Below, one piece after another: positions 19,726 through 22,734 of a DNA stretch of 64,000 nt (the first letter of the stretch is position 1; every line of letters begins with the position of its first letter). A program made the position numbers and the translations under genes. Source of the stretch: Candidatus Eiseniibacteriota bacterium (GTDB lineage Bacteria; Eisenbacteria; RBG-16-71-46); the NCBI GenBank assembly GCA_036507005.1, contig DASXQT010000075.1, positions 37,178 through 101,177 of the forward strand, in the 5' to 3' direction. The notes under the pieces are model-generated. The model had not been told where the DNA came from. It was given only the letters and a program-made list of their open reading frames with translations, and did no database searches.

Positions 19726-22700
19726 GTGGATGCCGTGCGCACCATGTCTCGGTATACGAGCGCCCTTCCGCTGGCCGCGCTCGCGGCGGCGCTGTGGGCT
19801 TCGACGGCCCTTGCCGCCGGCTCATTCAGCCGTATTCAGGTCCTGCTTCCCGGCGAGAGCCCAGCACCCGGAACCACGAGCGGCAAGACCGGCACCCCGA
19901 CGGCCCAGACCAAGGGTGTGCCCTTCACGTTCACGGTTCGCGCCTGCGACTCGAACTGGAACCTCGTCACGTCGGTGACGGACGTGGTCGACATTCTGAG
20001 CTCGGACGCGACCGCCACGCTGCCCCCCTCGGCCCCGCTCGCATCGGGCACGGCCAGCTTCCCGCTCACCTTCAACGCGGGCGGCACGTTCACGGTGTTC
20101 GCGCACGACCACGACGACAACACCATTCCGGACGGCACCTCGTCGCCGGTGACCGCGATGGTGCTGCAGAGCTTCACCTTCTCGGCCATCAACCAGAAGA
20201 ACCAGTACGCGGGCGTGCCGATGACCATCACGGTCACCGCGCGCGATCCCTCCGGGGCCCAGATCACGGGCTACAACGGCCCGGTGCACCTGGATGAGAA
20301 CACGAGCCTCGGCGACGGCCGCTGCTCGCCCGACTCGGTGACGATGTCGGGCGGCTCCTGGACCGGCGCCGTCACCATGTACCGCGCCGACGAGACCAGC
20401 ATCAACCGCGGCAACGTCAACCTCGTCGCCTTCCTCGGCAGCGCCAATGGGAGCAGCGATCCCTTCACCGTGCACCCGGGCTCGTTCTCGCGGCTGCAGC
20501 TCGTCGTGCCGGGCGAGTCGCCGCTGCCCGGAAGCGTCTCGGGCAAGGTCGGCGTTCCCGCCACCCAGATCTCGGGGCGGGCGTTCAGTGCCAGCGTGTG
20601 GAGCACCGACAACTGGTGGAACCCGGTCCCGAGCGCCGACAACGTTCGCCTCACCTCGAGTGACGGCGCGGCCAACACGCCTCAGACCGGCGCGCTCTCG
20701 AACGGCTACCGCGCCTTCAGCGTGACCCTGGGCACGGTCGGCACCCAGACGCTCGCCGTGACGGACCTCACCGACGGCACGAAGACGGGCATGACCAGCC
20801 CGGGCATCCCGGTGATCCCGAGCGCCCTCGACCACTTCGTGGTGGGTGCGATCGGCTCGCCCCAGACCGCGGGCGTGCAGGTCACCGTCACGATCCGCGC
20901 CGCCGACGCGAGCGGCAACACGGTCACGAACTACGCGGGCGATGCGTTCCTCACCGCCAACACCGGCACGGGCAGCATCTCGCCCGAGCTCATCGGCTTC
21001 ACCGCCGGCGTGTGGACCGGCCCGATGACGTTCAAGGGCGCGGCCCAGGCGGTGGCGTTCACCTGCTCCGACTACTTCGTGCCGCCCCACACCGGGGCCA
21101 GCAATTCCTTCCAGGTGAATCCCGGCCCGGTCAACCACCTCCAGGTGCTGCTTCCGGGCGAGACGCCGAACGGGGGCACCGCCGACGGCAAGACCGGAAC
21201 ACCCAACGGCCAGCAGGCCGGCACCGCCTTCACGGTCACCGTGCGCGCGGTGGACCAGTACTGGAACCTGGTGACGGGCGTGGGGGACAGCGTCGCCCTC
21301 GGCTCGAGCGACGCCTTCGCCGCGGTCGCCGCGCGCGTGGCGCTCGCGAACGGCCAGGCGCTGGTCCCGACCACGCTCTACACCCCGGGCGCACAGCGCA
21401 TCTGGGCGAGCGACGTGACGCAGCCCGCGGTGCTGCCCGACACCTCGTCCGCGGTGACCGTGACCGGCGGCACGTTCTCGCGCGTGCTGATCCTGGCGCC
21501 CGGCGAGAGCAACGCCCCCGGCACGCCCAGCGGCAAGACCGGGACTGCGACCGACCAGTCGATCAACTACTCGTTCAACGTCACGGTGCTGGCCACCGAC
21601 CAGTGGTGGAACCCGGTCACCGGAGTCACGGACGTGGTGCATATCACCTCGGACGACCCGGGCGCCACGCTGCCCGCGGATCAGGCGCTGGTGGACGGCC
21701 GCGGCGAGATGTCGGTGCGGCTCGTCCGCGGCGGCTACAACCTGATCACGGTCGCGGACGTGACGCGTCCCAGCATCCAGGGGAGCAACACGCAGGTGGT
21801 GGCGATCTCGAGCGGGTTCCACCTCGTGGCCAGCGTGACCCCGGCGAGCGTCGGGGCGGGCGAGGCCTTCACGCTCACGGTCAAGGTGGTGAACGACGCG
21901 GGCAGCACGATCCGCGAGATCAACTCCGACGTCACGCTCCAGGCGCTCAACGCCTCGACGCTCCAGCCCGGTCGCGGCGCGCTGCTCCCGTCGCGATTCT
22001 CGCTGATCCAGGGCGAGCGCTCGGTGACCGAGACCTATTCGTTCGCCGAGCCCATCGTGATCCGGGCGCAGGACGACGCCGGCAACGCGCCCGCGACCAG
22101 CAACCAGATCGCCATCACTCCGGGCCCGGCGGCGGCGGTCCGCTTGAGCGCCCCGACCTGGATGGGCGGCAACAAGCACGTCACGCTGACGGCCACGCTC
22201 GTGGACGCCTACGACAACGGCATCTCCGGCGTCGCGATGAGCTACCTGCTCGTGAGCGGGAACGGCACTCTGACGCCGATCGACAACGTGACCGCAGCCG
22301 ACGGCAGCGCGCGCGCCGACTTCCTGAGCCCGCGCACCCCGGAGCGGGACAGCCTCCGCGCCTCGGCGGCCGGGTTCGGCGCCGGGGCCGGCATCGAGGT
22401 CACCTACGTCGATCCCGACGCTCCGGCGGGCTCGCTCACGAACTATCCGAACCCGTTCCAGCCGTCCAAGCAGCCGACCACGATCTCCTACAAGCTCTCG
22501 GACCAGGCGGCGGTGACGCTGCGCATCTTCGACCAGAACGGCTCCACCGTGCTGGAACGCACCTACGCGCGCGGCGGCGCCGGGGGCAGCGCGGGCCTGA
22601 ACGAGGTCACCTGGGACGGCAAGAACGGCAAGGGCGAGACGGTGTCGAGCGGCGGCTACGTGCTCCTGGTCGAGGCCCAGGGGACGGGCGGCACGCTCCA

Positions 22701-22734
22701 CGTCATCCGCCGCAAGATTGGCGTGGTGCGGTAG
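19726..22734 (+). CDS. large secreted repeat protein with C-terminal T9SS/FlgD-Ig-like sorting domain
   Basis: 1002 aa. Signal peptide (alternative start ATG 19744). Four modules of about 200 aa each, beginning [25 protein letters not shown] / [25 protein letters not shown] / [25 protein letters not shown] / [26 protein letters not shown]-terminus [19 protein letters not shown]...[13 protein letters not shown]...[26 protein letters not shown] reads as a Por_Secre_tail-type sorting domain. Confidence 0.8.

Follow-up and report, generated by a model that had tools for sequence, protein, structure and literature searches.

The 64-kb stretch of DNA analysed here (hereafter the window) encodes a secreted immunoglobulin (Ig)-repeat protein of about 1000 amino acids (aa) at 19726..22734 on the + strand, which we consider on balance probably a surface fibre whose C-terminal tail is docked on an outer-membrane barrel of the PorV/PorQ type, as the outer part of a motor-linked envelope complex from whose operon the gene has become detached in this organism. 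Because the architecture of the protein is fixed, its conservation resembles that of ExbB and its gene normally stands at the head of an operon for envelope and motor proteins, its likeliest role would be that of the outer, surface-exposed part of an envelope-spanning complex. The initial annotation of this DNA, made from the sequence alone, had described a secreted protein of several repeated domains that ends in a domain of the sorting type, and the analysis supported this.

In orthologous loci, the fibre gene is the first of eight, the following seven being separated by gaps of tens of bases and encoding, in this order, a barrel protein of ~420 aa, a tetratricopeptide repeat (TPR) protein of ~1050 aa, ExbB, two consecutive ExbD proteins, a TonB_C protein and a protein of ~280-350 aa with a FlgD_ig domain. 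The ~420-aa protein belongs to the PorV/PorQ family (NF033709, score of 111.3 vs a cutoff of 90), and its best sequence match in the PDB is PorV of F. johnsoniae (6h3i_F). Near its C-terminus, it carries a FlgD_ig domain of its own, beyond which 15 aa follow. About eight YbgF/CpoB-like units make up the TPR protein, which also shows a sub-threshold match to PorW/SprE; for the motor proteins, scores are slightly higher with TolQ/TolR than with ExbB/ExbD. The product of the eighth gene (20278-21126 in locus L003, with equivalents in ~47 loci) has a FlgD_ig-like domain in its interior (22 bits) and is otherwise without recognisable domains. The same domain type is thus present in three proteins encoded by one operon: the fibre, the barrel and the product of the eighth gene.

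The linkage of fibre and barrel genes is near-absolute in both directions. Among 72 genome loci with at least 1.5 kb of downstream DNA, the barrel gene directly follows the fibre gene in 70, the exceptions being the window and L042; in the latter (1-4836), a gene for a protein with a type IX secretion system (T9SS)-like tail precedes the orthologue, and unrelated small genes follow it. In the opposite direction, an independent metagenome scan was seeded with the barrel protein, and the best 80 contigs contained 60 loci with upstream DNA, in all of which (60/60) the 3' end of the fibre gene lies immediately upstream of the barrel gene. Median identities to the L003 operon across 39 complete operons were 61.5% for the fibre, 62.3% for ExbB, 56.1% for the barrel, 53.5% for the TPR protein and 45.1% for TonB. 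Since the fibre is conserved at the level of ExbB and above that of the barrel, TPR and TonB proteins, it behaves, as far as sequence conservation indicates, as a subunit of a machine and not as a variable adhesin.

Protein searches identified more than 120 full-length orthologues of ~1000 aa with 61-80% identity, and their conservation is even along the chain, tail included. Furthermore, a scan of one genome per species found a relative of the fibre in at least 268 species-level genomes. The best 80 of these 268 are all full-length (49-69% identity) and are labelled Eisenbacteria, Krumholzibacteriota, Latescibacterota, Zixibacteria and Fibrobacteraceae, together with a few bins whose labels seem wrong. 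The phyla carrying the fibre family are usually placed with Bacteroidota and Gemmatimonadota in the Fibrobacteres-Chlorobi-Bacteroidetes (FCB) grouping. Eight metagenome-assembled genomes bear doubtful labels (L016, L017, L018, L023, L029, L032, L038 and L043; Saccharimonadaceae, Acidobacteriota, Limnocylindrales, Verrucomicrobiia, Methylomirabilota, Hyphomicrobiales, Binatia and Bacteroidota), and their operons are near-identical; these odd labels are probably taxonomic mislabels or contaminated bins. According to the labels of the orthologues and of the sequence record, the host is Candidatus Eisenbacteria/Eiseniibacteriota, an uncultured soil bacterium, which replaces the earlier guess of a Gemmatimonadota or Bacteroidota-like phylum.

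The repeat layout of two domain types, A and B, two additional beta-sandwiches and a C-terminal domain give the protein the order signal peptide, A-B-A-B-A-A-Ig-Ig, C-terminal domain. Four copies of the motif FSR(I/L)Q(V/L)L(L/V)PGE..PG..SGK.G.P..Q...F..V.A.D..WN.V are present, at residues 34, 254, 469 and 584; they share 39-52% identity (pairwise BLAST E values of 1e-15 to 1e-23), so that the repeat is not due to chance. Four repeated modules are therefore present as had been noticed, but not at the proposed size of ~200 aa: the repeat unit is a domain of ~114 aa (A, with copies A1-A4), and a domain of ~105 aa (B) stands behind A1 and A2 only. Modules 1 and 2 align over 215 aa (38% identity, E 4e-35), and A3 and A4 abut with no B between them, which accounts for the motif spacings of 220, 215 and 115 aa.

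On the + strand, A1 (the PGE...WN Ig-like repeat) spans 19822..20166 and is followed by B1 (20167..20481), an Ig-like beta-sandwich delimited by the alignment of modules 1 and 2 and all-beta in the structure model; the A profile weakly matches the B1-equivalent position in orthologues. A2 (20482..20823; hidden Markov model (HMM) score of 140) precedes B2 (20824..21126), which is Ig-like with a weak MG4 match in the family scan and was placed by the module alignment and the model. A3 (21127..21471, HMM score of 147) and A4 (21472..21813, HMM score of 155) complete the set. Two further Ig-like domains, supported by the model, lie between A4 and the tail: a seventh (residues 697-800; 21814..22125) with a weak BatD/DUF11-like match in the family scan and an eighth, Big_1-like (residues 801-902; 22126..22431). 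In essentially every full-length copy, the strong A domains number exactly four and keep their order and positions, and no other open reading frame (ORF) with an A domain was identified in ~1.6 Mb of retrieved DNA, window included.

The full-length structure model (mean predicted local distance difference test (pLDDT) of 87.9) is all-beta and agrees with this architecture. Domain A was also modelled alone (pLDDT of 95.3), and a fold comparison of the model assigned it to an Ig fold of the Big_1/intimin-like kind. No Pfam or NCBIfam model matched domain A above its cutoff, nor was any family in these databases matched by P0152, a protein of six A domains and nothing else, in agreement with the earlier view that the module is not a named domain. 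Big_1 (PF02369) did not match the A domains, and its best score (26.3 bits vs a cutoff of 34.9) fell on the eighth domain only. Domain A is thus unnamed by sequence and ordinary by fold, i.e., the predicted structure places it in a known fold although no named sequence family includes it. With eight Ig-like domains and a C-terminal sorting domain, the protein combines the tandem Ig stalk and the cell anchor that characterize fibrillar adhesins. No distinct tip, enzymatic or lectin head domain was identified in Pfam, NCBIfam or the structure model, and A1 directly follows the signal peptide. A whole-chain Foldseek comparison with the PDB retrieved generic Ig/macroglobulin strings (alpha-2-macroglobulin, complement and Nup210), which were uninformative on function.

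The tail (residues 903-1002; 22432..22731, + strand) is a FlgD_ig-like domain of the sorting type with the motifs NYPNPF...WDG...GGY...RRKIGVVR that runs to the stop codon, and the opposite end of the protein carries a hydrophobic helix with an A-x-A site. T9SS type-A tails are compact seven-stranded Ig-like beta-sandwiches (PMC11285876), and the model of the fibre tail likewise has seven strands (residues 898-995 in 996-aa numbering, block pLDDT of 74-91). The tail passes the FlgD_ig model (PF13860) with 37.8 bits vs a cutoff of 27 over residues 915-986. The tails of two other secreted proteins of the window can be aligned with it and share PNP, h.L.h.D..G, W(DG) and G.Y as well as a final strand that is basic and hydrophobic, and the best-scoring local matches to it lie in the tails of a T9SS-dependent M6-like protease, PorZ and PorU. 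Its shape and motifs are those of a T9SS type-A tail, but it is divergent and scores below the curated cutoffs. Identity with the flagellar hook-cap protein FlgD was rejected: a PDB sequence search with the full protein returned a marginal FlgD match (E 0.68), and matches to full-length FlgD models were local and confined to the Ig domain (17-27 bits vs cutoffs of 230-383).

Domain A is not peculiar to the fibre. A profile built from 48 A domains and searched among 1.84 billion entries retrieved 10,266 cluster representatives at E ≤ 1e-3, of which 1,768 reach E ≤ 1e-30. The matches carry the signature LLPGE..PG..GK.G.P..Q.AG..F.V.V.A.D..WN.V, and some are giants, with up to 37 copies and lengths of up to 6,661 aa. 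Carriers among cultured Bacteroidota include Mucilaginibacter (WP_133231127.1) and Pedobacter (WP_207428581.1), the latter protein being named a T9SS type-A sorting-domain protein (TIGR04183, 41 bits), and A-domain proteins are also encoded in Endomicrobiales, Elusimicrobiota and Firestonebacteria. An unnamed Ig-like repeat with more than 10,000 cluster representatives merits a family model of its own.

Three giant A-domain proteins with the same type of tail (P0131, P0123 and P0122) were looked up in their genomic context. In Firestonebacteria, P0131 (5123 aa; tail with 25 bits to TIGR04183) is followed by a gene (L169 15675-17324) for a 550-aa PorV/PorQ-family barrel with a C-terminal TPR fusion (108.6 vs a cutoff of 90). 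In Elusimicrobiota, the gene next to P0123 (6506 aa) likewise encodes a PorV_fam-plus-TPR fusion (L170 20144-21832, GCA_041658405.1; 563 aa, 127.2 bits). Directly after this fusion stands a gene for a 641-aa protein with FliG middle and C-terminal domains and TPR (L170 21868-23790; 118 bits to TIGR00207, which is below the cutoff), and a gene for a coiled-coil protein comes next. FliG is a flagellar rotor-type domain, and this is an unexpected place for it. No barrel gene adjoins P0122, which has other Por_Secre_tail genes nearby. According to a review, T9SS genes are absent outside FCB phyla (PMC11285876), and no relevant paper was found that connects T9SS with Eisenbacteria, Latescibacteria or FCB candidate phyla, or PorV with Elusimicrobia. 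The combination of fibre tail, PorV-like barrel and TPR is a recurrent module, and its presence in Firestonebacteria and Elusimicrobiota, where T9SS is reported to be absent, extends it beyond the known range of T9SS.

A fibre-barrel pair in such organisms could represent a T9SS-independent or ancestral system of tail-to-PorV docking and surface movement, and not an accessory of the T9SS of Bacteroidota. Tentatively, and as a possibility of rather low probability, the whole might even constitute an undescribed envelope apparatus composed of an Ig fibre, a dedicated PorV/PorQ-like barrel and a TPR scaffold on a proton-motive-force motor of the 5:2 type. In Eisenbacteria, Krumholzibacteriota, Latescibacterota and Zixibacteria, the motor part of this apparatus may be TolQ/ExbB with two TolR/ExbD proteins and TonB, and in Elusimicrobiota it may be a FliG-like plus TPR protein.

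In the window, the gene is found outside the operon. Its neighbours are glyQ-glyS, two small ORFs, a YHS-domain protein and a Cys-rich secreted protein of 272 aa on one side and pyrR on the other, and this detached arrangement recurs only in the two closest relatives, which derive from two other samples (P0002/L085 and P0003/L086). P0003 (72% identity) shares the glyS-orf82-YHS context with the window and P0002 (80% identity) shares the Cys-rich ORF, while P0005 (70% identity, L084) retains the operon. Two window proteins considered as possible operon partners, a 762-aa TPR protein (28206..30794) and a TonB_C protein (11726..12694), were rejected for lack of a tblastn match at 1e-5. None of the best 80 metagenome contigs retrieved with the barrel query originates from the sample of the window (Ga0376049).

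A conserved non-coding leader of ~310 nt (19425..19737, + strand), recognised with nhmmer and by alignment, precedes the detached gene. It contains long invariant blocks and was matched by nhmmer only in L085 and L086 (E 1e-78 to 1e-94), being absent upstream of the operon-type orthologues, and among the window, L085 and L086 its DNA is more conserved than the coding sequence. The leader is probably a promoter or 5' leader, and a terminator-like hairpin inside it (19514-19540) probably ends the upstream transcript. A structured RNA was also considered and rejected, as the leader had no Rfam match and a folding energy equal to that of shuffled sequences (z of -0.13). All columns that do not vary among 44 orthologues are preserved in the window protein, and its identity to orthologues (62-80%) is normal for the family. 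Judging from the sequence, it looks like the product of a functional gene relocated or duplicated in one Eisenbacteria lineage, and nothing suggests decay of this copy.

We propose that the eight-Ig fibre is probably exported via Sec and displayed at the cell surface, with its C-terminal domain directing it across or onto the outer membrane. The tail would then dock stably on the dedicated PorV/PorQ-family barrel, comparable to PorZ on PorQ and PorU on PorV, and the A1 end would point outward, reaching ~30 nm from the membrane at full extension (our own estimate, assuming 3.5-4 nm per domain). A periplasmic TPR scaffold might link fibre and barrel to a proton-motive-force motor of the TolQR/ExbBD-TonB type. 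The genes for fibre, barrel, TPR scaffold, TolQ/ExbB, two TolR/ExbD proteins, the TonB/TolA-like protein and the FlgD_ig protein would normally be co-transcribed, and in the window lineage the fibre gene would have moved from this operon to its present position behind glyQS, where it has its own leader. The output of the complex could be the organisation of the envelope or surface layer, or adhesion and movement. If correct, the fibre would be, for several uncultured phyla of soil and sediment, one of the best-conserved proteins of the envelope and would offer a handle on how their surfaces are built, and the principle of tail-PorV recognition known from type IX secretion would appear older and wider than the Bacteroidota system.

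Several observations weigh against this proposal. The adjacency of genes indicates a functional link and not physical contact. The FlgD_ig-like domains of the barrel and of the eighth protein are not C-terminal, so this domain type is not always a secretion signal. The tail of the fibre failed both curated sorting-domain models, TIGR04183 (12.9 with the whole protein and 19.3 with the last 100 aa alone; cutoff of 23) and PF18962 (15.7 vs 27); from the earlier description of the tail, the NYPNPF...WDG...G-Y signature and the FlgD_ig-like character were thus retained, but membership in Por_Secre_tail was not. The inter-domain geometry of the full-length model is unreliable (predicted template modelling score of 0.39). 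Furthermore, none of the seven operon partners was detected in the 64-kb window (tblastn, 1e-5) or within 10 kb past either edge, and no PorV/Q-like gene or T9SS core gene was seen in these ~84 kb of contig (window plus 10-kb flanks). ORF scans for the T9SS core in the window, its flanks and the large ORFs of related loci instead returned housekeeping genes, polysaccharide synthesis genes, histidine kinases, a resistance-nodulation-division pump and a subtilase. A barrel partner for the organism of the window is therefore assumed and not seen in this part of the contig.

The lone position of the window gene, with no barrel gene nearby, would fit with the protein being an ordinary T9SS type-A cargo adhesin, exported by a canonical T9SS (SprA/Sov and PorKLMN), cleaved by PorU and linked to lipopolysaccharide, in which case the operon adjacency in relatives would have no mechanistic bearing on it. 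The alignment of its tail motifs with two TIGR04183-positive tails of the window and the common occurrence of domain A in Bacteroidota T9SS cargo are also consistent with such a role, which we nevertheless consider unlikely. The tail scores below the curated cutoffs and is conserved to the same degree as the remaining chain, unlike a signal that can be discarded, and both the invariant architecture and the ExbB-like conservation across phyla are atypical of adhesins. In addition, the gene pairing is near-absolute in both directions, and T9SS core genes are undemonstrated in the carrier phyla. Detachment from the operon could also point to a redundant paralogue or to a decaying, functionless remnant after operon loss; this appears very improbable, given that the ORF is intact and full-length, has retained the invariant columns and the usual identity to its orthologues, and that both the arrangement and the leader recur in two other samples whose proteins are 72% and 80% identical to that of the window.

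The FlgD_ig-like domain might also be an interaction module and not a secretion signal, and the protein a periplasmic or inner-leaflet part of a Tol-Pal- or Ton-like system. The three operon proteins with such domains, two of them non-terminal, the YbgF/CpoB-like units of the TPR protein and the slightly better TolQ/TolR scores of the motor proteins would fit this explanation. So would the FSU_2396-FSU_2403 cluster of Fibrobacter succinogenes (OmpA, TPR, TPR, ExbB, ExbD, ExbD, TonB), whose products are found in a multiprotein complex of the outer membrane and increase on cellulose (PMC6851124). The TPR-motor gene content and order of that cluster are the same as in the fibre operon, but the two were compared by description only, an OmpA-family protein takes the place of the PorV/Q barrel, and no orthologue of the fibre was reported there. 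Against a periplasmic location, the FlgD_ig-like domain of the fibre lies at the extreme C-terminus and starts with NYPNPF and ends basic and hydrophobic as T9SS tails do, its closest matches are the tails of PorZ, PorU and T9SS cargo, and A-domain giants of up to 6,661 aa are implausible in the periplasm. We regard this location as decidedly unlikely and favour a surface fibre on a PorV/PorQ-type barrel.

Such a fibre shares features with several known systems. Like T9SS type-A cargo such as the Pedobacter protein WP_207428581.1, it has an N-terminal signal peptide, a stalk of A-type Ig repeats and, at the C-terminus, a seven-stranded beta-sandwich of ~90 aa that opens with (Y)PNP(F), contains G.Y and closes with a strand that is basic and hydrophobic. 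Unlike this cargo, its tail falls under both cutoffs, scores better as FlgD_ig and is highly conserved, and the host phylum has no demonstrated T9SS. In the PorVUZQ attachment complex of the Porphyromonas gingivalis T9SS (PMC11611037), surface proteins with an Ig-type tail are associated with PorV/PorQ-family barrels (PorZ-PorQ and PorU-PorV), as is proposed for the fibre, whose tail locally matches the tails of PorZ and PorU. In contrast to these pairs, the fibre and barrel genes are adjacent, co-conserved and placed inside an operon with TPR and Tol/Ton-like motor genes, the barrel has its own FlgD_ig domain, and the fibre is purely an Ig rod, with neither beta-propellers nor a protease domain. 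The genes for PorZ and PorQ and for PorU and PorV are not known to be adjacent in P. gingivalis, and PorZ and PorU keep their tails.

The fibre also resembles SprB-SprF of Flavobacterium gliding, where a large repetitive surface protein is encoded beside its cognate outer-membrane barrel, and coupling to a proton-motive-force motor would be a further parallel; PMC11611037 gives an overview of type-B tails and PorP-like partners. It differs from SprB-SprF in the type of its tail, in having a PorV/PorQ and not a PorP/SprF barrel, in its high conservation and in the motor of its operon, which is of the ExbB/TolQ-ExbD/TolR-TonB and not the GldLM type. SprB is about six-fold longer than the fibre. 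Unlike the fibrillar adhesins intimin, invasin and FdeC with their Big_1 Ig repeats, the fibre does not reach the Big_1 cutoff by sequence and has neither a barrel at the N-terminus nor a lectin head at the C-terminus, and its anchoring would be via the C-terminal sorting domain.

The ORF at 19726..22734 (+ strand) is real, as had been claimed, and comprises 1002 aa when read from GTG 19726. Its GC content at the three codon positions (0.61/0.56/0.94) is the pattern of a real gene in a region with a bulk GC content of 71%, and an identical protein of 996 aa is on record (P0001) as 'FlgD immunoglobulin-like domain containing protein [Candidatus Eisenbacteria bacterium]' from a 195-kb JGI contig. 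The start is uncertain by a few residues: GTG 19726 is replaced by GTT in both closest relatives (L085 and L086), GTG 19735 is invariant across all three loci with GAGG ~9 nt before it, and ATG 19744 is the start chosen by JGI/NCBI that yields the 996-aa form. Based on this comparison, GTG 19735 or ATG 19744 appears more likely than GTG 19726. The predicted Sec-type signal peptide (19726..19815, + strand), read from the sequence, consists of a hydrophobic helix with A-L-A followed by A-G; the helix is present in the structure model at residues 8-24 (996-aa numbering) with low pLDDT, and the 'AAG' of this region is conserved in more than 90% of orthologues. An antisense ORF of 1005 aa spanning the whole gene (19822..22839, - strand) was rejected as the shadow of a high-GC gene, because the + frame has a GC content of 0.94 at the third codon position, only the + frame product has homologues and the antisense ORF has no coding signal. 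Long shadow ORFs of this kind are frequent in the 71% GC window.

Two more cargo proteins with the same type of tail had been placed at 42282 and 44797, and both exist. The second tail-bearing secreted protein (42282..44762, + strand) consists of beta-propeller repeats and a tail (FlgD_ig, 38.2; TIGR04183, 23.2 vs a cutoff of 23) and has a signal peptide after ATG 42282. The third (44797..47067, - strand) is an arylsulfotransferase (ASST; PF05935, 82 bits) with an Ig domain and a T9SS type-A tail, whose 37 bits vs 23 represent the top TIGR04183 score in the window. Their genes are convergent (42282-47067) and are immediately followed by a large polysaccharide-synthesis locus, which occupies 47200-64000 and 10 kb beyond (L087). 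It encodes sugar epimerases and dehydratases, UDP-glucose dehydrogenase, a Wza-like exporter, Wzz/GNVR, flippases, a Wzy-like polymerase and many GT4 glycosyltransferases.

On the other side of the window, the Cys-rich protein upstream of the fibre gene (18486-19304; 272 aa, predicted to be secreted) has the N-terminal motifs CWACYTGC...YCTAG...YCAVGGAC and no Pfam or NCBIfam match. It is 59% identical to its counterpart upstream of the closest orthologue (L085) and is missing in L086. Directly after its stop codon, imperfect direct repeats of CGCGTCGCCGC(C/T)G extend over 19305-19385.

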